Source: Myxococcota bacterium (GTDB lineage: Bacteria; Myxococcota; JACRCW01). Taken from it: a stretch of 64,000 bases of DNA. The translations under genes were made by a program, and so were the position numbers. The notes below the pieces were generated by a model. The model had not been told where the DNA came from. It did not search any database and saw nothing but the letters and a program-made list of their open reading frames with translations. Location of the stretch: contig JBFMGU010000006.1 in assembly GCA_040752415.1 (NCBI GenBank), forward strand, positions 7,779-71,778, in the 5' to 3' direction. This document shows, piece by piece, positions 10,760 to 55,305 of the stretch. Position 1 is the first letter of the stretch; each line of letters opens with the position of its first letter.

Positions 10760-13519
10760 TCACGGGCAGCCGGACCCCCCGTTGTTGCCTCCCACGTCGA
10801 CGGCGCCGGTGAATCCGCGCTCGGTCACGATCTGGAGCAGGGAGCACGCCGCCGCGTTGGACAGCGAGGGGTTGTCCTTGATGATGAACGCGTGGTCCAT
10901 GCTGGTGATGGCACTCAGCGAGCTGATGTCGCTGAGTGCGGCGTTGCCGGCAATCTGGAGGAACCACGCCAGGTGGGTGAGGACGGGGAAGTCCACACCG
11001 ACGAGCGAAGCATTGTTGCTGATGTTGAAGACGCCGCCCTCACTGCGCAGCCGGGGTGCGGAGACGCTGCGCAGGGCCGGGTTGTTGACAATGTCGACGC
11101 GCTCGAAGCCCACCGTCACCAGCTCCGGGAAGGAGACGTCCAGGGCGTCCGTGACGTTGGCGATGACCAGCGCGCCGGTGGAGCACCGGGTCTGCGCGTG
11201 GGAGGCCACCTGGGCCGCGGCGTTGCCCCCGTCGATGTAGACGATGGACACCACGCCGGTGTCGTCGTTGCCGCCCATGTCCACGTCCAGCAGCGTGCTG
11301 CCGGGAAGCTGGACGCGGTTGCGCAGGTCCAGCACCTCACAGGTGGAGAGCGCGCTGTTGTTGCGCACCGAGGCCGCTTCCAGCACCAGCAGCCCGCCCA
11401 GGCCCGCCAGACTGGTCAGCGCGGGGTTCCCGGTGAGCGTCAGGGTCTGCAGGCTGGCCAGCGCCGGGAAGCTCATGCCGGTCAGCGCCGCGTTGGTCTC
11501 CACGCGCAGCTCGTCCAGGGAGAGCAGCTGCGGCAGCGCCATCCCCGTCAACGCGGCGTTGCCCGTGACCACCACGCTGGTGGCGTCCCGGAGCTGGGGT
11601 GCGGTGAGGGCGCCGTCGGCGGGGTTGCCCTCCACGCGCAACGTCGCGCCCACGGTCCGCAGCGCCGGCAGGTTGATGCTCCACGACGCGGCCTGGTTGG
11701 TGACGGCGAGGTCGGCGCCCACCACGGCAAGCTGGGTCATCGACGCCGCCAGGGGCCCGGGGTCCGCTCCGTCCTCGGGGGTGAACGCCAGGGTCCCGGT
11801 GACGCAGGTGACGTTGGCGTGCCCGTCCGCCTCCAGCGAGGAGCGGATGAGCAGGTCACCCTCCACGGCGTTGGGATGGTCGCAGGGCCCCGGCGGATCG
11901 ACGAGGCCACACAGATTCGCGTCACCCGAGCACACCTCCGCCACCAGGCGCCCCGAGGGTCCGTTGCCGCATCCGGGGTCCCGCTCGACGACGGCGCCGG
12001 GTTCCAGCACCACCGTGCCCGCCACCACCTTCTCGCCGCTGCAGATCTCCAACCTACCGCGCACCCGCAGCGTGCCCGCCACGCGCGCGGACTCGACAAA
12101 GCGCACCGACGTCACCACCTCGACGGTGCCGAAGCTGGGCCGCGCCAGCGTGACCTGCGCGGCGGTGGTGCCGTCCAGGACCAGCTGGTGGGAGGCAAAC
12201 GCGTCCAGGTCCCCCGTCCCGGTGATGTCGCCGCGCACCGTCAGCGTTCCGGCGCTGAGGGCCACCACGGTGGCGGTGTCCCAGGTCAGGTCGTCGTCGA
12301 CGAGCACCCGGTCCGCCGCGTCCGTCATGTCCAGTCGTGCCAGCGGTCCCAGCTGCAGGGAGCGCGCGTGGAGCCGGGAGGCGCCCAGCGTGACCGAGGC
12401 GGCAACCTGGGAGGCCTCCACCACCACCGCACCCGCCTCCACGTCGCCCAGCAGCGCGTGCGCCGAGGTTGCCGCGCCGCCGAGGGTGACGTCGGGAAGC
12501 TCACCGAACACCGTGGTATCCACGCCCACCAGCCGCATCCCGCCGGACAGACCGCTCCCGGGACGCGCGGTGCCCGCCACCCACAGGGCCCGCGAGACGG
12601 AGAGCTGCACGCCGGGCGCCACCACCAGCGCCGCCCCGTTCTCGACGAGCAAGTCGCCCGCTTCACCGGCGAAGTCGACCTCCGGCACGCGGGCGGCGCC
12701 GCGGGGGATGAGCACGGTGGCGGTCTGGTTGGGCACCTGCGCTGGCGTCCAGTTGTCCGGGTCCCACCACGACGTGCTCACGCCGCCGTTCCAGGTGGAC
12801 AGGCCCTCACTCCGCAACGCCACGTGGACCACCCCGCGGCTGCGCGTGCCGGTGGTGTCGGCGGTGCACACCGTGACCTCCACGTCGACGACGACGGCGG
12901 ACTCCAGCGGAGAGAACACCAGCTCCCCGCCCTCCACGATGGCCACACCCGCGGCGGGGGAAACGGAGAGGACGCCGTGGGAGAGCGCGCCGGGGTCTAC
13001 GTCCTGAAGCGGAATGCGGGCGTGGACCTGGCCAGCGCCAACCGCGCCCACCTGGCGCCACTGCAACGGCAGGGTCTCCACCGTCGAATCCGCCTCGCAC
13101 CCGCTCCCGGATGACGACGAGGAAGCGCTTGAGGAGGAATTGCTGCTGGAGCTCCCGCCCGAGGAGGAGCTGGAGCTGCTGGCGGAGCTGGAGCTGGTGA
13201 CGCTGGAGGAGACGCCGCCGCTGGAGGTGCTGGAGGAGGCGCTGGACACCGCCGATGACGGGACTGCTCCCGACGAGGATGACGACCCCGTGGAAGCTTC
13301 GGCCAGCTCCGCCAACGGGACGCAACCGCCGTCCACGCAACGCGCGTCACCGCCGCACTCCGGGGAATCCGCGCACTGCGTGCGACACACCGACTGCACG
13401 CACACGTACCCGGAAAGGCAATCCTCCCCGGTCTCGCACGCGTAGCGACCCAGATCCGTCAGGCATCCGGCCAGGAGCAGGGACGAAGTCAACACGAAGC
13501 CGCGCGTGGCAGGCAGCAC
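10760..13519 (-). CDS. large lipoprotein with a Cys-rich N-terminal module, a Ser-rich linker, a beta-helix-like region and C-terminal receptor-L-domain/LRR-like repeats
   Basis: A likely GTG start at 13519 gives MLPATRGFVLTSSLLLAGC, a lipobox. An upstream in-frame ATG at ~13590 is also possible. It is followed by CETGEDCLSGYVCVQSVCRTQCADSPECGGDARCVDGGC, then a poly-Ser linker. The middle is rich in G/T/V/A, consistent with a parallel beta-helix. The C-terminal repeats follow the pattern L..L..I.GN.AL..L, like receptor L-domains. Confidence 0.7.
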   Translation of the reverse strand: MLPATRGFVLTSSLLLAGCLTDLGRYACETGEDCLSGYVCVQSVCRTQCADSPECGGDARCVDGGCVPLAELAEASTGSSSSSGAVPSSAVSSASSSTSSGGVSSSVTSSSSASSSSSSSGGSSSSNSSSSASSSSSGSGCEADSTVETLPLQWRQVGAVGAGQVHARIPLQDVDPGALSHGVLSVSPAAGVAIVEGGELVFSPLESAVVVDVEVTVCTADTTGTRSRGVVHVALRSEGLSTWNGGVSTSWWDPDNWTPAQVPNQTATVLIPRGAARVPEVDFAGEAGDLLVENGAALVVAPGVQLSVSRALWVAGTARPGSGLSGGMRLVGVDTTVFGELPDVTLGGAATSAHALLGDVEAGAVVVEASQVAASVTLGASRLHARSLQLGPLARLDMTDAADRVLVDDDLTWDTATVVALSAGTLTVRGDITGTGDLDAFASHQLVLDGTTAAQVTLARPSFGTVEVVTSVRFVESARVAGTLRVRGRLEICSGEKVVAGTVVLEPGAVVERDPGCGNGPSGRLVAEVCSGDANLCGLVDPPGPCDHPNAVEGDLLIRSSLEADGHANVTCVTGTLAFTPEDGADPGPLAASMTQLAVVGADLAVTNQAASWSINLPALRTVGATLRVEGNPADGALTAPQLRDATSVVVTGNAALTGMALPQLLSLDELRVETNAALTGMSFPALASLQTLTLTGNPALTSLAGLGGLLVLEAASVRNNSALSTCEVLDLRNRVQLPGSTLLDVDMGGNDDTGVVSIVYIDGGNAAAQVASHAQTRCSTGALVIANVTDALDVSFPELVTVGFERVDIVNNPALRSVSAPRLRSEGGVFNISNNASLVGVDFPVLTHLAWFLQIAGNAALSDISSLSAITSMDHAFIIKDNPSLSNAAACSLLQIVTERGFTGAVDVGGNNGGSGCP

Positions 13520-13585
13520 GGCTGCATTCTTCCCAGGGGTGTCGCGATCTGCCAAGGGCGGACGTGGGAGGGATTTGGTGGCAGC

Positions 13586-14140
13586 ATGCATGCCATGTCG
13601 GATGACTTCCTGCTCCGCACCCCGCGACTCCTGCTCCGGCCCCACCGCCCCGACGACGCGCCGTTCATGGTCGAGCTCAACGCCGACCCGGAGGTGGTGC
13701 GCTACACCGGCGACACGGCCTTTGGCAGGCTGGCGGAAGCGGAGGAGGTCATTGCGTTGTTGATGCGCCAGTACGCGGAGCGCCGCATGGGCCGCTTCAT
13801 GGTGGTGGAGCGCGAGAGCGGGCAGCGGTTGGGGTTCTGCGGCCTGAAGTTGCTCCCCGACGGAGAAGTGGACCTGGGCTACCGGCTGCTGCGCTCGGCG
13901 TGGGGCCAGGGTCTGGCCACGGAGGCGTCTCGTGCGTGCCTGGACTACGGGTTCGGTGAGCTGGAGTTGCGTCGGATTGTGGCGGACGTGATGCCGCAGA
14001 ATTCGGCTTCGCTTCGCGTGGTGGCCAAGCTGGGTTTCACGTTGGAGGGGCCCCGCCACGAGGACGGCATGGACCTGTTGCGCTTTGCGCTGCACGCACC
14101 GGACGGTCCGCTCAGTACTCCGGCTCCGCGTACGCGGTGA
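13586..14140 (+). CDS. GNAT family N-acetyltransferase (RimJ/RimL-like)
   Basis: 184 aa. It begins FLLRTPRLLLRP..., has the typical motif RF.VV.RESG..LGFCGL, and QGLATEA..A.LDYGF. An alternative start MSDDF is at 13595. Confidence 0.85.
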   Translation: MHAMSDDFLLRTPRLLLRPHRPDDAPFMVELNADPEVVRYTGDTAFGRLAEAEEVIALLMRQYAERRMGRFMVVERESGQRLGFCGLKLLPDGEVDLGYRLLRSAWGQGLATEASRACLDYGFGELELRRIVADVMPQNSASLRVVAKLGFTLEGPRHEDGMDLLRFALHAPDGPLSTPAPRTR

Positions 14141-14675
14141 AGGCCGCCTTCACGGCGAGGTCGAAGTGCGCGGGCACCATGTCCACGCAGCCGTTGAAGG
14201 AGAAGCGCAGGTCGGCGTCGGAGTCGAGCGCGGCCTTGAGCCAGGCATTGACGGGCTCGCGGTCAAACGGCACTGACACCGTGTTGCCCTCGGACACTTC
14301 AATGGTCTGCGGCCCAAAGACCAGGCCTTCATCCTGCTCGTCGAGCTTGAGGATGACGGTGCCCTCCATGGTGGTGGACCAGTTCTCCGCGCCAATGTTC
14401 TCCACCTTCACGCGCAGGCCGGTCAGCTCCACCTCCAGCGCGTTGCGCGTCTTCTCCCGCCACTCCGCCAGCTCCTCCTTGGGCACGCGGTCCTCGCGGT
14501 GGAAGCAGTTGGGTGAGTCATCCACGTCCTGACCCCGCACCTGCACGGAGTCCTCCAGCTCGAACGTCGTCAACTGCACCCGCGGCAGACAGGCTTCATT
14601 GCCCGCGGTGGCCAGGTAGATGGCCGTCATCAGCGCGGTTTGGGACCAGATGGAATGCCGGCGTGGCGTGGACAT
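14112..14675 (-). CDS. hypothetical secreted protein
   Basis: 187-aa ORF with strong GC3 bias and an N-terminal hydrophobic segment (ALMTAIYLATAGNEAC). It is convergent with the GNAT gene and overlaps it by ~28 bp. No recognisable family. Confidence 0.55.
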   Translation of the reverse strand: MSTPRRHSIWSQTALMTAIYLATAGNEACLPRVQLTTFELEDSVQVRGQDVDDSPNCFHREDRVPKEELAEWREKTRNALEVELTGLRVKVENIGAENWSTTMEGTVILKLDEQDEGLVFGPQTIEVSEGNTVSVPFDREPVNAWLKAALDSDADLRFSFNGCVDMVPAHFDLAVKAAFTAYAEPEY

Positions 14676-14919
14676 GGCTCTCTCCTCCCGGCGCGACCGT
14701 GCCGGCGGACCTGATGGGCTGTTGCCTCGGACAGGCGCGGAGAGAGCACACGCCGTGCCGACCCGCGGGCGGTAGCACGCTCACCGTGAAATGCGTGGTT
14801 CTCCTCGAGAAAGCGCAGTGGGGGCCAGGTGGGAGACGCGGCGAAGGGGCGCACGCGGGACAGGCGCGGGCATTCCATGGGGCACCTGAGCCTCATGGCG
14901 CCTGGCGTCGGTGGGCAGG

Positions 14920-15371
14920 TTTTCCCTCTCCCTCTCCCTCTCCCCCTCCCCCTCCCGGGATGTCAGCGGGACGTGTCCACGTGATCCGCATCAGGCGAGC
15001 CGTTCGGTCGCAGGCAGCCGAGGCTGCACCTGGAAAGGCACCAGCCCTGCCCGCGCGGACCTTCTTCACGACGTCATCGTCGGCAGGGCTCTACCTTGGT
15101 GGCGGTAGGGAACGTGGCTCGGGACAAGCAGCCTCAGGCCGCGCCCCCGTCGTCAAAACCCACCTTCTGCGAACCACGTCCCCTACCCCGCCGAGGTGGA
15201 GCCCTGCCGACGCTGACGTCGTGAAGAAGGTCCGCGCGGGCAGGGCTGGGTGCCTTCCCAGGTGCAGCCTCGGCTGCCTGCGACCGAACGGCTCGCCTGA
15301 CGCGGATCACGTGGACACGCCCCGCTGACATCCCGGGAGGGGGAGAGGGAGAGGGAGTGGGAGTGGGAAAA
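14920..15371. repeat. large imperfect palindrome. The ~190-bp inverted arms are ~93% identical and are separated by a ~70-bp spacer. Each arm is tipped by a (CCCTCT)n simple repeat
   Basis: Arm 1 (14920-15110) is ttttccctctccctctccctctccccctccccctcccgggatgtcagcggg...cgtcggcagggctc. The reverse complement of 15181-15371 is nearly the same sequence. The ORFs 14911..15108(+) and 15183..15392(-) encode near-identical peptides only because of this symmetry. Confidence 0.85.
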
Positions 15372-15419
15372 CCTGCGCGTGGCGCACTGCACTCCGGGTG
15401 CTGCGACCAGCCACGTCCC

Positions 15420-15857
15420 TCAGTGCTGGATGATGCCGGCCTCGCGGTGGGAGATGTTGCGCAGCACGGTGGCGGCCCGCGCGCCGCGCTCCACGTCGGC
15501 CACGTCGGAGAGGCTGATGACGCCCACCGGCCGCTGGTGCTCATCCACGCAGATCACGCGGGACACGCGGTGGCGGCTCATGAGGCGCTCGGCCTCGTGC
15601 AGGTCGTCGGTGGGACGGCAGGCAATGATGGGCTGGGACATGACCTCGTGCACGCGGGTGGTCTCCAGGTCGCGGTCGGTGGCGAGCACGCGCACCACCA
15701 GGTCGCGGTCGGTCACCGTGCCAAGGACCCGGCCCACCTCGTCGCGCACGGGCATGAAGCCGATGTTCTTCTCCGCCATGCGACGGGCCACCTCGCGGAT
15801 CTCGTCGTTGGGGTCGCAGCATTCCACGCTGGTCTTCATGATCTCGTGGCACTTCAT
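15420..15857 (-). CDS. CBS-domain pair protein
   Basis: Starting at ATG 15857, preceded by GGAGG, gives MKCHEIMKTSVECCDPNDEIREVARRMAEKNIGFMPV.... Two CBS motifs are present (G.VTDRDL; GVISLSDV). The table ORF has 19 extra upstream codons. Confidence 0.85.
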   Translation of the reverse strand: MKCHEIMKTSVECCDPNDEIREVARRMAEKNIGFMPVRDEVGRVLGTVTDRDLVVRVLATDRDLETTRVHEVMSQPIIACRPTDDLHEAERLMSRHRVSRVICVDEHQRPVGVISLSDVADVERGARAATVLRNISHREAGIIQH

Positions 15858-15879
15858 GGTGTTCCTCCAGGGTGCGCGA

Positions 15880-16344
15880 TCAGTGACGCTTGAAGAACTG
15901 CACCTGCCGCTCATGCTTCTCCGCCGCGGCGCGGGTCTTGAACGTGCCCAGGTTGCGGCGCTTGCCGGTCCTGGGATCCTTCTTGCGCGAGTAGAGGCGG
16001 TACTCCCCGCTGGCGAGCTTGCGGATCATGATCTGGCTCCCGCTGACGTTGGTGCGGCTTGCGCGGCCGCCCGTGCGACCAAAAAGCCGGCGCAGCTCAT
16101 CCTTGGCCTTCTCCAGGCGCGCGCGGTCCCGCGGGGACAGCTTCCGTCCCGCGCGGTTGATGTGGAGATTGAGCATGGACATGGCGGACTGGAACTTGGT
16201 TCCGCGGGTCCGCCGGCTGCGCTCGACCGCCCGCTTCAGGCCTTGCGCGATTCCCGGGGCGTCACGTCGGAAGACTCCCGGCGGCAGGTCCATGGCATTG
16301 GACGTCTCCGCCACCTGGCGCACCCAGGACTTTCGCGCGGACAT
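15880..16344 (-). CDS. DUF3175-like basic protein
   Basis: 154 aa. It begins MSARKSWVRQVAETSNAMDLPPGVF and has a basic C-terminus ...GTFKTRAAAEKHERQVQFFKRH, which resembles the DUF3175 family. It lies 22 bp upstream of the CBS gene on the same strand, so the two are probably an operon. Confidence 0.65.
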   Translation of the reverse strand: MSARKSWVRQVAETSNAMDLPPGVFRRDAPGIAQGLKRAVERSRRTRGTKFQSAMSMLNLHINRAGRKLSPRDRARLEKAKDELRRLFGRTGGRASRTNVSGSQIMIRKLASGEYRLYSRKKDPRTGKRRNLGTFKTRAAAEKHERQVQFFKRH

Positions 16345-16414: not shown

Positions 16415-17599
16415 TCACGGACCCGGGGGCACGCTCCCGCCGCCCGCGCCCGCGGAGCCGCAGACCGCGCCACCGTCGGGGGTGGTGCCGCCGCCACCGC
16501 AGTTGCAGTCGCACGGCGGGCAGGTCTCTCCGGGCGCGCACGCCGGGCAGGCGCAGGCGCATCCGCCGCCACCGGTTCCCCCGCTGGAGGGCTGCGACTG
16601 GCACACGCCACTGACGCACGTCTCCCCTTCGCGACACGGCATGCCGAGCCCGTACCACACACACGCGTGCATGGTGTCCTCGGCGCACGCGGTGGCGTCG
16701 GTGTGTGTGTTGCAGGGATCGGAGGCCATGCCACCGTCGTGGTCCATGCAGTCGCAGGAGCACGGCTCACAGGTCTGGCCCTCGGGACACGCGGGACACG
16801 CGCAGGTGCACGCACCGGTGCTGCCTCCGCTGCCTCCCGAACCGGGCTCACCGCCGCCGGTGCTCCCGCTGCCGGAGCACGCGCAGTCGCAGGGCGGACA
16901 CTCGCCCAGGGACTCGTCGCAGGCGGGGCACACGCAGGTGCACGTCCCGTCGCCGGAGCAGCTGGTGCCGCCGCTGTCACCGCTGTTGCAGTCGCACGCG
17001 CACGGCGGGCAGCTCTCTCCCGGTGCGCACGCGGGGCACGCGCAGGTGCAGGTGCCACCCTCGTCGCCACCGGGCTCGCCGTCGGAGGCGCAGCTGCACT
17101 CGCACGGCGGACACTCGGCGCCCTCCGGGCAGTACATGGGGCACGCGCACAGGCAGTCATCTCCGCCGCCACTTCCACCGGCCTGGTAGCAGACGCCCTC
17201 CCCGCAACCCGCTCCCCCCGTCGGGCAGAGGCGCTCCAACCTGGCCCACGCACAGCTGTTGGCCGTGTCGGCGGCGCAGCTCGCGCTGTCGCTGTGCGAC
17301 GCACAAGGATCCTGCACGTGACAACTTCCCGCCGGGCAATCGGGACACGCTGCTTCCATCCCGGACCAGACACAGCCGTTACCGGTATCCGCTTCACAAC
17401 CGCCTTCCTCGACGTGGGCAGCGCACGGGTCCCGGGCATCATACGCGGCCACCAGGGCACCGGAGGACCCACCACCCGACGAGCTCGACGACGAAGTGGA
17501 ACCCGATGACGAGCTGGTGCTGCTGCTGCTCGACGACGATTCCGGGGTGCATCCCCACACCAGCACCGCGACCATCCACACTGGGGCTGTTGCTCTCAT
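16415..17599 (-). CDS. cysteine-rich repeat lipoprotein
   Basis: A lipobox (MVAVLVWGC) is followed by a Ser-rich linker and at least 5 tandem copies of CTCACPAC.PGE.CPPC.C-type units, ~70 Cys in total. Three other long ORFs in other frames or on the other strand over the same DNA are artefacts of the repeat composition. Confidence 0.7.
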   Translation of the reverse strand: MRATAPVWMVAVLVWGCTPESSSSSSSTSSSSGSTSSSSSSGGGSSGALVAAYDARDPCAAHVEEGGCEADTGNGCVWSGMEAACPDCPAGSCHVQDPCASHSDSASCAADTANSCAWARLERLCPTGGAGCGEGVCYQAGGSGGGDDCLCACPMYCPEGAECPPCECSCASDGEPGGDEGGTCTCACPACAPGESCPPCACDCNSGDSGGTSCSGDGTCTCVCPACDESLGECPPCDCACSGSGSTGGGEPGSGGSGGSTGACTCACPACPEGQTCEPCSCDCMDHDGGMASDPCNTHTDATACAEDTMHACVWYGLGMPCREGETCVSGVCQSQPSSGGTGGGGCACACPACAPGETCPPCDCNCGGGGTTPDGGAVCGSAGAGGGSVPPGP

Positions 17600-22448: not shown

Positions 22449-22942
22449 CGTCGGACTGTGTCGGTTTGTCCGTGTCAGCGAAGGCCGGCGAACAGGGGCT
22501 GCGTCAAGAGAAATTGCCCATCTGGTCCTGACCGCCTCCAGCGGACCACGACCTGGAGTGCGGCGGGCCCTCGCCGCCCTGGTCAGCGGTGAGCGGTTTG
22601 GACAACCGTCAAGGATCCAAGCGCCTCGCCCGACGTCATTCAGCCCCAGGGCTGTTAGGCCCGTTGTGAACGCGCTCGGCGCCGACCAGGGCGGCGCGGG
22701 CCCGCCGCACTCCAGGTCGTGGTCCGCTCACGACGTCTGCAACCCCACCGGGCCATTGCTCCAACACGGACGACGTCAACGCGCACCTCCCCCGGCTCAT
22801 TCCGCCGCGCGCAGGCGGCCGTCATGCGCCACGCGGAGCCAGATGCTCACACGTTTCCCGGCGTGAACGCGTGGTCACACCGTCGGGAAAACTTGTGCGG
22901 CGCGTCCCCGTCGATGTCTCCTGCGTGGGCAAGGAGTGATCC

Positions 22943-33705: not shown

Positions 33706-33726
33706 GGCGTGGGTGGCGGGTTGGGG

Positions 33727-34013
33727 TTGGTGGCACGTTGGCCCCCCACCCGGCCGCCAGCCGATCACTGAGTTCACGACGTGGCGGCCGACCTCCCCCA
33801 CGGTGTGGGGAGGCGTAGATGTGCCGCCTCGCTGGAACGGTGCGCGCATTGGGCGGCACGGGCTCAATGAGGCCTTGTGCCGCGCTTGGCTCAATGAACA
33901 ACCCCGACGCGGCACATCTACGCCTCCCCACACCGTGGGGGAGGTCGGCCGCCTCGTCGTGAACTCGGTGAAATCGGTTGGCGGCCGGGTGGGGGGGCCA
34001 ACTCGCCACCAAC
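33727..34013. repeat. large inverted repeat. The ~105-bp arms are ~93% identical and the loop is ~75 bp. It fills the gap between two convergent genes
   Basis: Arm 1 (33727-33830) is ggttggtggcacgttggccccccacccggccgcc...gtggggaggcgtagatgtgccgc, and the reverse complement of 33905-34013 matches it. The loop holds a short direct repeat (gctcaatga). Its sequence is unrelated to the 14920..15371 palindrome. Confidence 0.8.
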
Positions 34014-34022
34014 CCCACCGGG

Positions 34023-35534
34023 TCACGGCCGGGTCGCGGTGACCTCGCGCTTCCGCGTCGACAACTCCCGCGCAATCGTATCCGCCGCGGCCATGGCGCT
34101 GCGCGCCGCACCGTCGGAGTGACCACTCCAGGTGTAATCCCCGACGAGCCACGTCCCCAGCTCGGGCTCCCGCAACCGCTGGTGCTTCTCGTCCATCGGC
34201 GACCGACCCGGCGGCCACACCGCAATGGAACCCGGGTGATACGTGTACGCCGTCGTCGTCACCACGTGGCGCGAAAACCCCGGCCACAGCCGGTCCATGG
34301 CCGCAAGCATCTCCTTCACCTTGTGGTCGCGCGGCGCCATGTGGAACGCGCTGGCATTCACTCCGTGCACCAGGAAGGAGAACACCTCGTTCGCCTCGTC
34401 CTCCGGACTCTCGCTCTGCGCGCCGTAGATGACGCCCAGCACGCCGTCGGTCAGGTAGGGGAACGGGTCCTGCCCATCCACGTACGTAAGCTTGCGGTGC
34501 TCCTTGCTCACCACCATGTGCACCACGGTGTACTGCCCGCGCATCAACGTGCTCACCGCCTCCCATTTCGCCGACGACAGCGAAGGCTCGAAGTGGATCT
34601 GGTGCAACCGCCAGAACGGCACCGCCACCACCACGCGCTCCGCCGCCACCACGTGCTGCGTTTCCTCAACGCCCTGCCGCAGGAACGTGACCCGCGCCCT
34701 GTCCCCTTCGCGGTCAATGCGACTCACCAGCGCGGAGGTCAGCGCGTTCGGGCCCGCTTCCTTCGCCAGCGCCTCGATGAGCCGGGAGTTCCCGCCCTTC
34801 ACCTTGTAGTTGGGCTCGCCCTCCCCGAGGAACACGCCAAACTCCAGCAGCCCCACGAGCCCCGAGAAGAGCTCCCAGCTCGTCGCCAGCTCGCACTCGA
34901 CGGTGAGGCGGATCCAATCCTCCACGCGCTTGCCCATCTTGAAGCCGCGCACCCACGTCGCAAAGGAGACGTCCTGCAGCGCCCGGACCTCCGACGCCGC
35001 GAGCCCCCGGGAGAGCGCCACGCCGCGCAGGGCCCGCGCATCCTCCATCCACCACCGGAGCACGCGCGCGTTCTTCACGCCCAGCAAGCTGTGGAAATAC
35101 TCCTCGGTGGTGTCCTGCACGTACGGATACAGCTTCCCGTCCAAGACCATGCTGGAGAACGGCGCTTCCACGTCGCCATCCAGCTCCACGCCCAGGTCGC
35201 GAATCACCTCGAGCAGCGGGTTGTCACCCCAGATCTCCTGCAGTCCGTATTCCGCACGGAGACCGTGACCGTAGTGGGCGGTCTGGACCCGCCCGCCAAA
35301 CTGCTCGCTGGCCTCCAGCAACAGGAACGAGACGCCGCGCTTTTTCAGCTCATGCGCCGTCACCAGGCCCGCCAGGCCGCCGCCCACGATGACCACGGGA
35401 GCTTCCGTCGGCACCGGGCCCGCGTGCGCGTCAGGCGCGGACTGCGCGTGCGCCTCCGGCTTCCGGCACGACGTGACGGCGAGCAGGATGAACAACACGA
35501 ATGGGAGGGTGGGACGCGCGGTGATGGGACCCAT
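34023..35534 (-). CDS. flavin-containing amine oxidase lipoprotein
   Basis: Starting at ATG 35534 gives MGPITARPTLPFVLFILLAVTSC, a lipobox. The FAD dinucleotide fold is VVIVGGGLAGLVTAHELKKRG. The C-terminal amine-oxidase region has DYTWSGHS.GA. The upstream 85 codons of the table ORF were rejected. Confidence 0.85.
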   Translation of the reverse strand: MGPITARPTLPFVLFILLAVTSCRKPEAHAQSAPDAHAGPVPTEAPVVIVGGGLAGLVTAHELKKRGVSFLLLEASEQFGGRVQTAHYGHGLRAEYGLQEIWGDNPLLEVIRDLGVELDGDVEAPFSSMVLDGKLYPYVQDTTEEYFHSLLGVKNARVLRWWMEDARALRGVALSRGLAASEVRALQDVSFATWVRGFKMGKRVEDWIRLTVECELATSWELFSGLVGLLEFGVFLGEGEPNYKVKGGNSRLIEALAKEAGPNALTSALVSRIDREGDRARVTFLRQGVEETQHVVAAERVVVAVPFWRLHQIHFEPSLSSAKWEAVSTLMRGQYTVVHMVVSKEHRKLTYVDGQDPFPYLTDGVLGVIYGAQSESPEDEANEVFSFLVHGVNASAFHMAPRDHKVKEMLAAMDRLWPGFSRHVVTTTAYTYHPGSIAVWPPGRSPMDEKHQRLREPELGTWLVGDYTWSGHSDGAARSAMAAADTIARELSTRKREVTATRP

Positions 35535-38330: not shown

Positions 38331-39143
38331 GTGCAAGGTGGCGTCATGCCTGACGTCGTGAACCGGGGGGTTCGCATCCATTACGACGTGCAGGGCACCG
38401 GTCCCACGGTGTTGCTGCTGGCCGGCCTGGGCTACGGCGGCTGGTACTGGCGTCACGTGCGCGCGCGTCTGTCGCCCCATTGCACCGTCGTCACGGTGGA
38501 CAACCGCGGCTCCGACGGCTCCGACAAGCCCGCCGGTCCCTACACCACCGCGCTGCTGGCCGAGGACGCCGCGGCGGTGCTGGACGTGTTGGGCCGTCTC
38601 TCGACGACGGTGGTGGGGCACTCGCTGGGTGGGCTGATTGCGCAGGAGCTGGCGCTGGCGCGGCCGGACCTGGTGGGCAGGCTGGTGTTGATGTCGACGC
38701 ATCACGGCGGGTGGCAGGCCATTCCGGTCACGCCCGCGGCGTTGGCGGTGATGCTGGACCGCAGTGGGAGCGCGCAGGAGGTGTTCCAGCGCGGCATGGC
38801 GGTGGCCACCGCGCCGGGTTTCTCGACGTCACACCCGGAGCTGGTGGAGGAGCTGCGGGCCTACCGCGCCGGCGGGCCGGTCCCCGCGTCCGCGTACACC
38901 GCGCAGCTGATGGCGGGCGCTGGCCACGACGCCGCGAGCCGGCTCTCACGCATCAGCTGTGACGTGCTGGTCCTCGCCGGCGCGTTGGACCAGGTGGTGC
39001 CGGTGGGAAACGTGGAGCTGCTGCGCAAGCGGATGCCGCACGCGGTGACCCACGTCTTTCCGCGCGCAGGCCACCTGCTGGGCTGGGAGGAAATCGACGA
39101 CGTCAGCGACCAGATCCTGCGCTGGGTCCGCGCGGCGTCGTGA
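38331..39143 (+). CDS. alpha/beta hydrolase
   Basis: The nucleophile elbow is GHSLGG, and LLLAGLGYGGWYW is present. An alternative start is at 38346. The first ~100 codons are duplicated as a decayed copy at 40529..40842. Confidence 0.8.
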   Translation: MQGGVMPDVVNRGVRIHYDVQGTGPTVLLLAGLGYGGWYWRHVRARLSPHCTVVTVDNRGSDGSDKPAGPYTTALLAEDAAAVLDVLGRLSTTVVGHSLGGLIAQELALARPDLVGRLVLMSTHHGGWQAIPVTPAALAVMLDRSGSAQEVFQRGMAVATAPGFSTSHPELVEELRAYRAGGPVPASAYTAQLMAGAGHDAASRLSRISCDVLVLAGALDQVVPVGNVELLRKRMPHAVTHVFPRAGHLLGWEEIDDVSDQILRWVRAAS

Positions 39144-39287
39144 GCGCGTGCATCACGGTGCCACGGACATGGTGCTCAGCGACGGTAGCTGATGGGCATT
39201 GGTTGTCGCTGCGCGCGTCCATGGGCCGTGGCGCAGTCATTCTTGCCTGCGATTCCGCGTGCAAGGGCCATCACTTTCGCGGGTTGT

Positions 39288-39557: not shown

Positions 39558-40067
39558 TCACCCTTGCTTGAGGGATTCCACCACGGCGGAGAGTTGGACC
39601 ATGGATTCCCGCATCCCTTCTTCCATGCCCGTGGCAATGACCTGGTCCCGCACTTCCTTGGACGGATAAGTGGAACGGGACGTCATGGTGGTCCTTCCGC
39701 CGTTCTCCGTCAAAGTCACCGTCACGGTGGCGGCCGCGTCCGGGAACGGGTCGAAGATTTCGGTGTTCACCACGCGGTGCGGCGCGTCGATCTCCAGGTA
39801 CTTCCCGTGGAAGCCCACGTCCATCCCGTCGTGGGTGCGCATGGCAAAGCGCCAGCTACCGCCCACGCGGAAATCGATCTTGCATTCCGTCATCTTTCCC
39901 TTGGACGCGGGCGACCACCACTTGCTCACAAGCTCCGGCTCATTCATCGCGCGGAAAACCAGGCGCAGGGGCGCGTTGAAGCTGCGCGTGATGAGAATCT
40001 CCCGATCCGCGGGGAGCTCCAGCGTGGTGCTGTCATTGACGGAATCTTGAGCGGTTCTTGCTTGCAT
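39558..40067 (-). CDS. SRPBCC-superfamily protein (Aha1/activator-of-Hsp90-ATPase-like)
   Basis: It has ITRSFNAPLRLVFRAMNEPELVSKWW and F.GKYLEIDAPHR, typical of the AHSA1/SRPBCC domain. GC3 is visibly lower than in neighbouring genes. Confidence 0.75.
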   Translation of the reverse strand: MQARTAQDSVNDSTTLELPADREILITRSFNAPLRLVFRAMNEPELVSKWWSPASKGKMTECKIDFRVGGSWRFAMRTHDGMDVGFHGKYLEIDAPHRVVNTEIFDPFPDAAATVTVTLTENGGRTTMTSRSTYPSKEVRDQVIATGMEEGMRESMVQLSAVVESLKQG

Positions 40068-40449
40068 GGCTTTTCCTCTCCTTGTTGTGGGTGTGCCGAC
40101 CGGAGTGGCCGGACGTGGCTTTGCCGACGGCGCCCGACTCGGAGCGCTTCAGCTCCTCCAGCACCTCATCCATCTGTGTGAAGCGTTCTTCCCAGAGCTG
40201 GCGGTACCGCTCCGTCCACGCGTGCAACTCACGGATGGGCGCAGGGCGAAGCTCATACACGCGCTGCTGCGCATGCGGTTGCATGTCCACCAGGCCCGCT
40301 TCCTTGAGCACCTTCAAATGCTTGGAGACTTGCGGCTGACGGATGTTGAGCTGGTCCCCAATCTCCCCCACGGGGCGGGCTCCGCTCAGGAGCAGCTCGA
40401 CAATGCGGAAGCGGTTGGGCTCGGCCAGGGCCGCGAAGGTGGCGTGCAT
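40033..40449 (-). CDS. ArsR/SmtB family transcriptional regulator
   Basis: Starting at ATG 40449 gives MHATFAALAEPNRFRIVELLLSGARPVGEIGDQLNIRQPQVSKHLKVLKEAGLV, a winged HTH. Its 3' end overlaps the SRPBCC gene start by ~35 bp. Confidence 0.8.
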   Translation of the reverse strand: MHATFAALAEPNRFRIVELLLSGARPVGEIGDQLNIRQPQVSKHLKVLKEAGLVDMQPHAQQRVYELRPAPIRELHAWTERYRQLWEERFTQMDEVLEELKRSESGAVGKATSGHSGRHTHNKERKSHASKNRSRFRQ

Positions 40450-40528
40450 GGTCAATATATTCTCCATTACGAATAGTCGTGTCAAGGAATATTTACGGGC
40501 AACGCCCGCCGCTGCGGAGACAGAGCAG

Positions 40529-40842
40529 CGCGTCGATGTTGACTACGACGTGGAGGGCACCGGTCCCACGGTGTTGCTGCTGGCCGGCCTGGGCTACGGC
40601 GGCTGGTACTGGCGTCACGTACGCGCGCGGCTGTTGCCGCACTGCTCCGTCGTCACCGTGGACAACTGCGGCTCCGACGGCTCCGAGAAGCCCGCCGGTC
40701 CCTACACCACCGCGCTGCTGGCCGAGGACCCGGCGGCGGTGCTGGACGCGCTGGGACGTTTCTCGACGACGGTGGTGGGGCGCTCGCTGGGCGGACTGAT
40801 TGCGCAGGAGTTGGCCGTGGCGCCGTCGGACCTCGTCGGCTG
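40529..40842 (+). pseudogene. truncated, degenerate copy of the N-terminal ~105 codons of alpha/beta hydrolase 38331..39143
   Basis: ~92% nucleotide identity to 38384..38683. The GHSLGG elbow is changed to GRSLGG, NRGSD is changed to NCGSD, and the frame runs into unrelated sequence (..CGSQTRMSAPQLES) with no hydrolase C-terminus. Confidence 0.65.
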
Positions 40843-41072
40843 CGGCTCGCAGACAAGAATGTCCGCGCCACAGCTTGAGAGCCAATGGAGCTCCCGCCGA
40901 CGACCCCCGTGAAGTCGCTGGGCGCCGCAAGAGGTCCGTGGCGCGGACATTTCTGCCTGCGATCCGCGGCGACGCGGCTCACCGTCAGCCTGCAGCCTCG
41001 TTGGGCGATCGTTGGACGGGGTGCGGTATCGACGAGGACTTCGATCCAGTCGTTTCTCTCCGCGCCGGCTCC

Positions 41073-46626: not shown

Positions 46627-47502
46627 ATGGAGAAGCGGCCTCTGGGTGCAACGGGGATGCAGGTCTCGGTGCTGGGCCTGGGCGCGGGTCACGTGGGCGG
46701 CGCGGAGCTGTCCGAGGACCACGTGGGCTGGCTGCTCAACGCCGCGTTGGACCTGGGCGTCAACCTCGTCGACACCGCGCGCGGCTACGGGCTCTCGGAA
46801 GAGCGCATCGGGCGTCACCTGGCGTGGCGACGACGTGATTTCGTGCTGGTGAGCAAGTGCGGCTACGGCGTGGAGGGGGTGGCGGACTGGACGCCGGAGT
46901 GCATCCGCGTCGGCGTGGACCAGGCGCTGCGTCGCATGCGCACCGACCACATCGACGTCATGATGCTGCACTCCTGCCCGCGCGCCACGTTGGAGCAACC
47001 GGGGCTGCTGGACGCGCTGGACGACGCGGTGCGCGCCGGCAAGGTCCGCCACGCGGGGTACTCCGGCGAGAACGAGGACCTGGCCTACGCGATCTTGACG
47101 GGGTGTTTCACGGTGTTCGAGACGTCGGTGAATGTGTTTGACCAGCGTGGCCTGTGGGAGCTGGTTCCGCGCATGGGCGCCGCGGGGGTCATTGCGAAGC
47201 GGCCGGCGGGGAATGCGCCGTGGCGTTTCGTCGAGCGGCCCCACGGGCATTACGGCGAGGTGTACTGGGAGCGCATGGTGCAGTTGGGGCTGCGGCCTGG
47301 TCCGCTGTCCTGGACGGAATACGCGTTGCGGTTTGCCGCGCATGCGCCGGGAGTGCACTGCGCCATCGTCGGGACGTCCAGCGTGGAGCACCTGCGGGAG
47401 AACGTGCGCGCGGTGGAGGCGGGGCCGTTGTCGTCGGAGGTGTTTGCCGAGGCGCGCGCTGCGTTTGAGCGGGTGGGGAGAGATTGGCGGGGGCAGGTGT
47501 GA
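46627..47502 (+). CDS. aldo/keto reductase
   Basis: ATG 46627 gives MEKRPLGATGMQVSVLGLGAGH.... DTARGYG and IDVMMLH are present. It is divergent from the acyltransferase-3 gene, with an 80-bp gap. Confidence 0.9.
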   Translation: MEKRPLGATGMQVSVLGLGAGHVGGAELSEDHVGWLLNAALDLGVNLVDTARGYGLSEERIGRHLAWRRRDFVLVSKCGYGVEGVADWTPECIRVGVDQALRRMRTDHIDVMMLHSCPRATLEQPGLLDALDDAVRAGKVRHAGYSGENEDLAYAILTGCFTVFETSVNVFDQRGLWELVPRMGAAGVIAKRPAGNAPWRFVERPHGHYGEVYWERMVQLGLRPGPLSWTEYALRFAAHAPGVHCAIVGTSSVEHLRENVRAVEAGPLSSEVFAEARAAFERVGRDWRGQV

Positions 47503-47509
47503 GGTCCGG

Positions 47510-47785
47510 TCCCAGCGGCGCGCCGGCCTCCCGAGTCAGGGCGTGAGCGTGGGCCGGCTCTCGGACTGCGGCATGAAGTGCCGCTTTGCCTTGGTGCACC
47601 CATTGAGACCGGGGTCGTCATGCGGCCGAGCGAAAGCGGTACTTCATACCGCAGTCCGAGAGCCGGCCCCCGCTCACGCCCTGACTCGGGAGGCCGGCGC
47701 ACCGCTGCGACCTCACGCTTGCCCTGGCCAATCACCCCCAAAGCCGGCCCACGCTCACGGATTGACTCGGAAGGCCGGCGACGCC
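47510..47785. repeat. cluster of at least 3 REP-like ~40-bp units (cgccggcctcccgagtcagggcgtgagcgtgggccggctc), one in forward orientation and two in reverse orientation
   Basis: The forward unit is at 47518-47557. The reverse units are at 47655-47694 and 47741-47780. Each has a gccggcc...ggccggc internal stem. The first two form a ~50-bp-arm hairpin. Confidence 0.75.
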
Positions 47786-47807
47786 AAACGCACTCGTCAC
47801 CAACGCC

Positions 47808-48278
47808 TCACCCCAACGCATCCATCGTCAACGCGCGAATCTCCGCCTCACCCATCCCGCGCGCCGGCCGCATCACCCCATCCACGTAGCGCCATCCCCC
47901 GCCCTCCCGTCGGAACGTGGACCGCTCCACGAAACCCACGTCCCGCGCGCCGTCCTGCACCTGCGCCCAGAACAGCACCCGCGCCACCCCGCTCTCGTCG
48001 GGGCCATCACTCGCCAACACCACCAGGCGCGGGTAGCGGAACCGGTTGCAGTTGCGCTTGAGCTCACGCCGCACCTCCTCGCGCGGGCGCTGCGCGTCGG
48101 GGTTGCTGCTGTGCAACGTGCGCCACAGGTGGTCCACCTGCGCCAACGCAAACGCGGCGTAGCGCGAGCGCATCAACGCCTCCGGCGTGGGCGCCTCCAC
48201 CCCGTCCTTGTGGAACGGCCGACAACACTCCGCATACCCGCGCCCCGACGAGCACGGACATTCCCGCGGCTCACCCAT
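47808..48278 (-). CDS. YchJ-family (UPF0225) protein with SEC-C metal-binding motifs
   Basis: N-terminal CPCSSGRGYAECC, the SEC-C motif. A second Cys pair lies near the C-terminus. ~156 aa. Confidence 0.8.
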   Translation of the reverse strand: MGEPRECPCSSGRGYAECCRPFHKDGVEAPTPEALMRSRYAAFALAQVDHLWRTLHSSNPDAQRPREEVRRELKRNCNRFRYPRLVVLASDGPDESGVARVLFWAQVQDGARDVGFVERSTFRREGGGWRYVDGVMRPARGMGEAEIRALTMDALG

Positions 48279-55159: not shown

Positions 55160-55281
55160 GCCCTTGCCCTGCCCGTGCCCGTGCCCGGCCTGTAGGTTCT
55201 CTCAGCGCAGAGGTTGTCTGCGGAGAACCCTCGTCGGGCGCTGAGCCCTCAAGCCGGGCACGGGCACGGGCAAGGGCAGCG
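55160..55281. repeat. nested inverted repeat between convergent genes. The 28-bp arms are gcccttgccctgcccgtgcccgtgcccgg, and the inner hairpin is ctcagcgc...gcgctgag. It is a likely bidirectional terminator or REP
   Basis: Read directly from the sequence. It lies 15 bp after the stop of 53955..55145 and 25 bp after the stop of the minus-strand gene ending at 55306. Confidence 0.65.
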
Positions 55282-55305
55282 TTTCTGGGATTGGCCGACA
55301 CACCC

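Follow-up and report, generated by a model that had tools for sequence, protein, structure and literature searches.

Palindromes of several hundred base pairs are a textbook example of sequences that are unstable in bacterial chromosomes, and palindromes of the REP type can shield upstream mRNA from 3' exonucleases. REP, BIME and REPIN elements are extragenic and often found after stop codons or between cistrons (PMC2817692, PMC8049555), and they are made of units of 20-40 nt that occur in tens to hundreds of near-identical copies together with a RAYT transposase. A second group of extragenic elements with inverted symmetry are MITEs and foldback elements, i.e., non-coding sequences of less than 600 bp with long terminal inverted symmetry, shared termini and target-site duplications. 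High-GC bacteria further carry U-tract-less "I-shaped" or bidirectional terminator-like hairpins directly after stop codons, for which the capacity to terminate transcription is disputed (PMC3993855). Much larger palindromes have been engineered into the E. coli chromosome, where a 460-bp perfect and a 480-bp interrupted palindrome form hairpins at replication that are cut by SbcCD, and the perfect one is lethal (Azeroglu et al. 2014, PMC4245961). Finally, replication template switching is known to generate inverted repeats and to keep them near-perfect without any transposition, as described for short repeats (Lavi et al. 2018, PMC5941160).

The window, i.e., the whole 64-kb stretch of DNA that we analysed, contains a natural sequence of this kind that we call palindrome A, 462 bp of non-coding DNA with two long arms facing each other around a unique central spacer (Table 1). 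The initial annotation had described a near-perfect palindrome with long arms at this place, and the structure is real, with the symmetry reaching 5 nt further on each side than had been noted. In the gapped alignment of the left arm with the reverse complement of the right arm, 194 of 208 columns are identical (93.3%), and the differences comprise nine transitions, three transversions and two gap columns. Ungapped detection finds one arm pair of 128 nt with 95% complementarity (14915-15042/15249-15376) and a second one of 80 nt with 85% (15032-15111/15179-15258), while Markov shuffles of the window contain arms of no more than 24 nt. In size, palindrome A is close to the E. coli constructs, and it shares the interruption by a spacer with the 480-bp one, but it is natural, has arms of 93% identity and a 48-nt spacer, and evidently persists.

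Table 1. Positions in the window of palindrome A and its parts, of the neighbouring genes, and of the five further long palindromes (B to F).
Feature	Positions	Strand	Description	Basis or location
A, left arm	14915-15121		207 nt	gapped arm alignment; ungapped arms also detected
A, central unique spacer/loop	15122-15169		48 nt	gapped arm alignment
A, right arm	15170-15376		207 nt	ungapped detection and gapped arm alignment
A, left tip	14920-14956	+	TTTT (14920-14923), then (CCCTCT)3(CCCCCT)2CCC (14924-14956)	sequence, repeat search
A, right tip	15335-15371	+	(GGGAG-type)n tract (15335-15367), then AAAA	sequence, repeat search
CBS-domain gene	15420-15857	-	GC by codon position 0.70/0.42/0.95	Pfam CBS, E = 3e-27
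DUF3175 gene	15880-16344	-	upstream same-strand partner of the CBS gene	Pfam DUF3175, E = 2.5e-30
Orphan gene	14112-14675	-	187 aa; GC3 0.90	no Pfam family
Palindrome B	22540-22728		56-nt arms, 93%, spacer 77	92 nt past the stop of a TPR gene (+)
Palindrome C	33713-34026		~113-nt arms, 92%, spacer 73	convergent gap: aldehyde dehydrogenase (+) / amine oxidase (-)
Palindrome D	40831-40977		41-nt arms, 83%, spacer 66	between an alpha/beta-hydrolase fragment and a convergent rhodanese gene
Palindrome E	47508-47712		80-nt arms, 94%, spacer 45	convergent gap: aldo/keto reductase (+) / YchJ (-)
Palindrome F	~55160-55282		~44-nt arms, 84%, spacer 29; C-tract/G-tract (G4 motif) tips	convergent gap

The RNA fold that the initial annotation had pointed to comes out as one continuous long hairpin, predicted for either strand of A with -474.5 kcal/mol on the plus strand (about -226 in shuffles, z = -39) and -485.4 kcal/mol on the minus strand (about -231 in shuffles, z = -35). 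A single arm folds no better than its shuffles (z = -0.47) and is therefore unstructured, which means that arm-to-arm pairing is the only structure of A and that the palindrome did not arise from a pre-structured domain that was later duplicated. Like the terminator-like hairpins of high-GC bacteria, A is a GC-rich inverted repeat right after a stop codon that lacks a U-tract, and several members of its class (see below) are found in convergent gaps, in which a single hairpin could work for the transcripts of either strand. However, those hairpins have stems of ca. 5-20 bp and loops of 3-8 nt, compared to a stem of ca. 207 bp and a spacer of 48 nt in A. The size and symmetry had been called far beyond a terminator, which is a fair description. 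A canonical intrinsic terminator is ruled out by the long spacer and the missing U-tract, with AAAACCUGC following the hairpin on both strands, and a terminator scan found no canonical terminators in 14500-15900.

Both tips of A carry the (CCCTCT)n repeats that had already been recognized, the left one in the form listed in Table 1 and the right one as the complement of the variant (CCCACT)2(CCCTCT)2CCCCCT CCC. The left tip is a pyrimidine tract on the plus strand and a G-quadruplex motif on the minus strand (14924-14956), and the right tip is its mirror image with the G-quadruplex motif on the plus strand (15335-15367) and the pyrimidine tract on the minus strand. Both strands of A have a 33-nt pure-pyrimidine tract at their 5' tip, and whichever strand is transcribed, this C-rich tip enters first, before the rest of the palindrome. 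Among segments of 78 nt, the one at 14916-14993 is at the 99.55th percentile of the C/G ratio on the plus strand and the one at 15326-15403 at the 99.48th percentile on the minus strand.

The same tips could also speak for a role of A at the level of DNA, i.e., as a cis-element forming a cruciform or a G-quadruplex/i-motif site for replication, recombination, telomere resolution or protein binding. Of the fifteen strong G-quadruplex motifs that the two strands of the window contain, four belong to the tips of A and F; in addition, A is predicted to form a very stable hairpin as DNA (-287 versus -113 kcal/mol in shuffles, z = -37). However, no GC-skew switch is found near A and its surroundings contain no recombinase, protelomerase, replication or mobile genes. 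The symmetry of A ends abruptly at its outermost GCAGG...CCTGC, beyond which the flanks are unrelated, and the presence of five other palindromes without sequence relationship speaks against one specific protein site, so that we regard a DNA-level element of this kind as very improbable. The same lack of a GC-skew switch led us to discard an origin or terminus of replication.

Palindrome A sits in a 744-nt spacer between tandem genes, with the DUF3175, CBS and orphan genes all encoded on the minus strand. The hypothetical gene on its far side had been taken as convergent with the CBS-DUF3175 pair, which is not the case: it runs in tandem with both, and its start codon faces A. In the sense of transcription, the CBS stop codon is followed after 43 nt by palindrome A, and another 239 nt separate A from the orphan start codon at 14675. 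The orphan gene is coding as judged by its GC3, and a search of 5.8 billion proteins with its 187-aa product returned no homologues beyond the match to itself. This protein and the CBS protein each have a 100% match to a protein recorded for a metagenome-assembled Myxococcota bacterium, on an 89-kb contig. Altogether, the neighbours of A are the CBS, DUF3175 and orphan genes as well as a GNAT gene, and no transposase, integrase or reverse transcriptase is encoded within about 7 kb. A retron msr/msd locus was therefore rejected, given that no reverse transcriptase is among the neighbours. The closest relative of the CBS protein in species-representative genomes is merely 38% identical, and the best ones in the protein database reach 51-60% identity with synteny absent. 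No orthologous locus of A was found among the relatives of the flanking proteins.

Two mirror-image ORFs do exist in A as had been reported (14911-15108 on the plus strand and 15183-15392 on the minus strand), and the label of pseudo-ORFs suits them because they show no coding signature. The GC content at codon positions is flat across A in all six frames (0.65-0.72), while real genes have a GC2 of 0.42-0.46 and a GC3 of 0.90-0.95. This flat profile also excluded that the arms or flanks are a coding relic or an inverted gene duplication. A dedicated non-coding RNA gene, e.g., one producing a long hairpin RNA as a source of small RNAs or a double-stranded RNA decoy, would agree with the extreme stability of the predicted RNA hairpin on both strands and with the observation that six of the nine transitions between the arms are compatible with G-U pairing on the minus (sense) strand, as derived by hand from the list of mismatches. 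However, this bias of 6 versus 3 is not significant, a single arm is unstructured, and neither a homologous locus nor a promoter-like consensus was found for A. Furthermore, no Rfam family is detected at gathering thresholds in the whole window, and at relaxed thresholds the only hits to A are hairpin models of plant miRNAs, whose scores fall well short of the gathering cut-off (93.9 bits versus 168). We thus give very little credit to a dedicated RNA gene; tRNA or tmRNA genes were not found either.

Palindrome A is the largest of six in the window, as an inverted-repeat scan revealed five more long palindromes with arms of 41-113 nt and spacers of 29-77 nt (Table 1), so that arms across all six range from 41 to 207 nt. 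Considering the textbook instability of long palindromes, it is unusual to find six of them in 64 kb, each unique and each at the end of a gene. Arm identities are alike in A, B, C and E (92-94%), but the six have no sequence in common, with the best cross-matches covering 9-14 nt at E >= 0.5, and no convincing motif is shared between the spacer of A and those of the others. We also considered TTCACGACG / GTCGTC as a motif common to the palindromes or their spacers, and it proved not to be specific to them. Palindrome E has an additional partial third arm directly adjacent at 47737-47780. The arm of D has a diverged third copy at ~39222-39262, i.e., 1.7 kb away, and the class is therefore not fully homogeneous; it is heterogeneous.

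All six palindromes are located in the non-coding part of the window (ca. 17.7%), and each of them abuts a stop codon. Four lie between convergent 3' ends (C, D, E and F) and the other two downstream of a gene in tandem gaps (A and B), while none is found in any of the nine divergent gaps, although two of these span 469 and 1214 nt. Palindromes C, E and F fill their convergent gaps nearly exactly, and the genes flanking these gaps are supported by Pfam or GC3. Two of the convergent assignments come directly from the gene caller, and those of D and E from Pfam-confirmed flanking ORFs, because this rather crude caller had overlooked both the fragment of the hydrolase and the gene of the aldo/keto reductase, and had therefore put D and E in tandem gaps. 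With six cases, the bias towards 3' ends is suggestive but not conclusive, and the palindromes could be extragenic simply because insertions or duplications are tolerated there. With the same detector, the longest arm in 289 kb of non-redundant comparison loci measures 35 nt, and the longest one in the 96 kb of these loci that have a GC content of at least 0.63, including the closest retrievable relatives, measures 30 nt. Long extragenic palindromes are thus a peculiarity of this genome, and what is new about A is that it belongs to a genome-specific set of long, unique palindromes at gene 3' ends, with some members at the junctions of rearrangements.

These junctions are apparent at palindromes C and D. 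In three relatives with an aldehyde dehydrogenase of ca. 81% identity (L026, L029 and L035), an aminotransferase gene follows within ca. 10 nt and then further genes, and 4.6 kb further along, L029 encodes the orthologue of the amine oxidase of the window (64% identity over 454 aa). In the window, a gap of 317 nt separates the aldehyde dehydrogenase gene from the amine oxidase gene and is filled by palindrome C, so that C is located at a gene-loss junction relative to these relatives. The left arm of D begins exactly where the homology of the alpha/beta-hydrolase ORF ends, and this ORF covers positions 1-90 of the 245 in the Pfam profile with the G-x-S-x-G nucleophile motif retained. When the six palindromes were compared to the loci of the relatives by tblastx, nothing but compositional noise was obtained. 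Together, the junctions, the extra partial arm of E and the divergence between arms fit an inverted duplication that arose locally through fold-back repair or template switching, and low-copy foldback transposons are compatible with the same junction features.

It is also conceivable that A is an assembly or amplification artefact, i.e., a chimeric inverted join, given that the source is a metagenome-assembled genome and that long palindromes were seen in this assembly only. Such a join would give identical arms, though, while those of A differ by 12 substitutions and two gap columns; the predominance of substitutions, chiefly transitions, indicates real divergence after duplication rather than an assembly chimera or the indel errors of long reads. 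In addition, none of the six palindromes interrupts intact coding sequence and each abuts a stop codon, the composition of A matches that of the genome (GC content of 0.688 versus 0.696), and intact unrelated genes are present on both sides. We consequently see hardly any room for an artefact.

A MITE-like element had been among the options offered by the initial annotation and is not supported by our results. Within the window, a sensitive BLAST search returned A itself and no second copy, and distant-mode blastn found no match in the phage and plasmid collections. We further scanned three contig collections for exact words of 20-22 nt, a search that diverged copies would escape. The 22-mer taken from the longest block that the two arms share without mismatch does not occur in the genome, metagenome or viral collections. 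The 20-mer of a second block is absent from viral contigs and occurs in three metagenome contigs, where the match extends over only 20-24 nt of unrelated and apparently coding sequence and is a chance one; beyond such chance matches, the arms of A matched no other locus among the sequences searched. A target-site duplication, for which the edges of A had been singled out, is not seen above chance: direct repeats flanking A reach 5 nt at most, with offsets, and random pairs of positions typically have 4-5 nt and up to 9 nt. Likewise, none of the six palindromes has flanking direct repeats beyond chance length. As a separate matter, we rejected A as a REP or REPIN because its arms are unique and 207 nt long and because no unit is common to the six palindromes, whereas REPs are short and repetitive.

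Palindrome A could nevertheless be a foldback-type non-autonomous MITE if the six palindromes represented different low-copy families and a transposase gene at another place in the genome provided mobility in trans. Inverted symmetry over the whole length, a size of less than 600 bp and an extragenic location would all suit foldback elements or MITEs, and the abundance of long palindromes in this genome, as opposed to their absence from 289 kb of comparison loci, hints at a process that is active specifically in this genome. Moreover, C and D are found at sites of gene loss or truncation as in transposon-mediated deletions, and the arm of D has its third copy 1.7 kb away. However, unlike in such elements, no target-site duplications were found for A, nor a second copy in the window and the collections searched, the six palindromes share neither termini nor sequence, and no transposase or integrase is encoded within about 7 kb, so that we consider a mobile element unlikely. 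The practical lesson is that a large palindrome should not be labelled as a MITE without evidence from copy number and target-site duplications.

The position of A right after a stop codon, together with five more palindromes at gene 3' ends, points to either a role as a 3'-end hairpin or a scar of local duplication. In the latter case, A would be the functionless remnant of fold-back break repair or of a replication template switch that persists because intergenic DNA tolerates it, perhaps aided by inefficient hairpin cleavage in this lineage, and would be no more than a curiosity. Several observations agree with this, i.e., that the sequence of A is unique, without family and not coding, that arm identities are similar in A, B, C and E, that C and D are located at rearrangement junctions, and that spacers of 29-77 nt are far longer than those of functional terminators. 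What speaks against a mere scar is the distribution of the palindromes, with none of the six in any of the divergent gaps, all of them abutting a stop codon and three filling convergent gaps almost exactly, though with n = 6 this is suggestive. On balance, we find it doubtful that A is nothing but a scar.

We favour the explanation that A is a locally generated inverted duplication that, once transcribed, acts as a 3'-end RNA barrier or processing hairpin, to which we assign a probability of roughly 45%. A fold-back or template-switch event may have made an inverted copy of ca. 200 nt of the spacer DNA, with 48 nt left as the loop between the two, after which the arms would have diverged by ca. 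7%. An event of 200 nt with a spacer of about 50 nt is far larger than those of Lavi et al. 2018 (PMC5941160), and the route of duplication is inferred only. Minus-strand transcription leaving the CBS gene would then first produce the 33-nt pure-pyrimidine, G-poor tract, which would stay unpaired for ca. 400 nt of further transcript and could plausibly serve as a Rho entry site. Subsequently, the transcript would close into a hairpin of ca. 207 bp that may stop 3'-to-5' exonucleases and may also serve RNase III as a long double-stranded substrate. In this way, the hairpin might set the 3' end of the CBS-DUF3175 mRNA and uncouple the orphan gene downstream. Because A is a palindrome, antisense transcripts would be treated alike, which fits the members of the class in convergent gaps.

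Two observations from other bacteria count against parts of this model. U-tract-less hairpins of mycobacteria failed to terminate RNA polymerase in vitro (PMC3993855), which argues against a purely intrinsic terminator, and long palindromes are a liability at the level of DNA in E. coli, where they are cleaved by SbcCD (PMC4245961). The persistence of A might be explained by the 48-nt spacer, by the 7% of mismatches between the arms, or by a missing or weak SbcCD. Among the readings raised at the outset, i.e., a mobile element, a structured RNA locus, a recombination or regulatory palindrome and, as a fallback, a large bidirectional terminator, our favoured explanation comes closest to the fallback in that A is a large, bidirectional and terminator-like structure, but the definition of a canonical terminator does not apply to it. 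Any function of the six palindromes is putative.

A broader version of the favoured explanation would see in the six palindromes a sample of a lineage-wide population of sequence-unique extragenic palindromes of ca. 120-460 bp, about one per 10 kb, for which a fold-back or template-switch process would be active at the 3' ends of genes and at junctions of rearrangements, and which would be tolerated or used as 3'-end RNA modules. We hold this generalization to be rather improbable at present, yet if true, it would contradict the notion that bacterial chromosomes cannot keep long palindromes. Should the pattern extend genome-wide, it would offer a natural system to study the origin and survival of long inverted duplications in bacteria, and to ask if very long U-tract-less hairpins set the 3' ends of mRNAs in high-GC lineages with few canonical terminators.

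Beyond A, the palindromes are weakly tied to C-rich tracts across the six loci. C-rich segments at or above the 99th percentile on either strand accompany five of the six, compared to 43% of random segments, and such segments on both strands accompany two of the six, compared to 4% of random segments, an association that may in part reflect antisense coding composition. Palindrome E is directly flanked by the top-ranked C-rich, G-poor segments of the whole window on both strands.

The aldehyde dehydrogenase and the convergent amine oxidase of the window are separated by a 317-nt gap (33706-34022) that is occupied by palindrome C, one of the long extragenic palindromes found alongside the main palindrome A. 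In three relatives with a ca. 81% identical aldehyde dehydrogenase (loci L026, L029, and L035), this gene is directly followed by an aminotransferase, and at L029 an orthologue of the window's amine oxidase lies 4.6 kb beyond. Palindrome C therefore marks a gene-loss or rearrangement junction.

Palindrome D (40831-40977) encodes the tail of a truncated alpha/beta-hydrolase ORF that retains the G-x-S-x-G motif. The left arm of the palindrome starts exactly where the alpha/beta-hydrolase homology ends. A third, diverged copy of the arm is found ca. 80 nt beyond the stop codon of a gene that ends at 39143, in the vicinity of an ArsR-like regulator gene (see table). Palindrome D may represent either a dispersed short repeat or a site resembling an operator.

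Next to the main part of palindrome E (47508-47712) is a third partial arm, which suggests repeated local duplication at this site. The most C-rich, G-poor 78-nt window of each strand across the whole 64 kb was found at 47427-47504 (minus strand) and 47781-47858 (plus strand). Both of these extremes adjoin palindrome E on its outgoing side, and they could serve as Rho-loading sites behind the hairpin.

Additional features near palindromes A, D, and E

Feature	Position	Strand	Remark
Third, diverged copy of palindrome D arm	39222-39262		1.7 kb upstream of D
ArsR-like regulator gene	ca. 39558-39947, or extending further	-	near third D-arm copy
Truncated alpha/beta-hydrolase ORF	40343-40912		covers positions 1-90 of the Pfam profile (245 positions)
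Third partial arm of palindrome E	47737-47780		86-90% complementary to 47521-47564
12-nt exact direct repeat GGACAGGCGCGG	14729-14740 and 14858-14869
14-nt inverted repeat	14650-14663 and 14865-14878		overlaps orphan gene start

The 239-nt spacer between palindrome A and the neighboring 187-aa gene, a strict orphan, contains a direct and an inverted repeat (see table) that could be regulatory or a product of chance. Many genes near palindrome A, including those at 14112-14675 (the orphan), 10760-14095, and 16415-17599, have no Pfam family. Long poly-Ser tracts are present in the nearby 1111-aa and 394-aa ORFs, the latter of which is also very Cys-rich.

Finally, the metagenome contig L033, which is unrelated and was reached solely through a chance 20-mer match to an arm of palindrome A, carries three hairpins within 2 kb (835-907, 2052-2136, and 2756-2838). 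With arms of 29-35 nt and loops of 13-27 nt, these hairpins possibly form a REP-like family.
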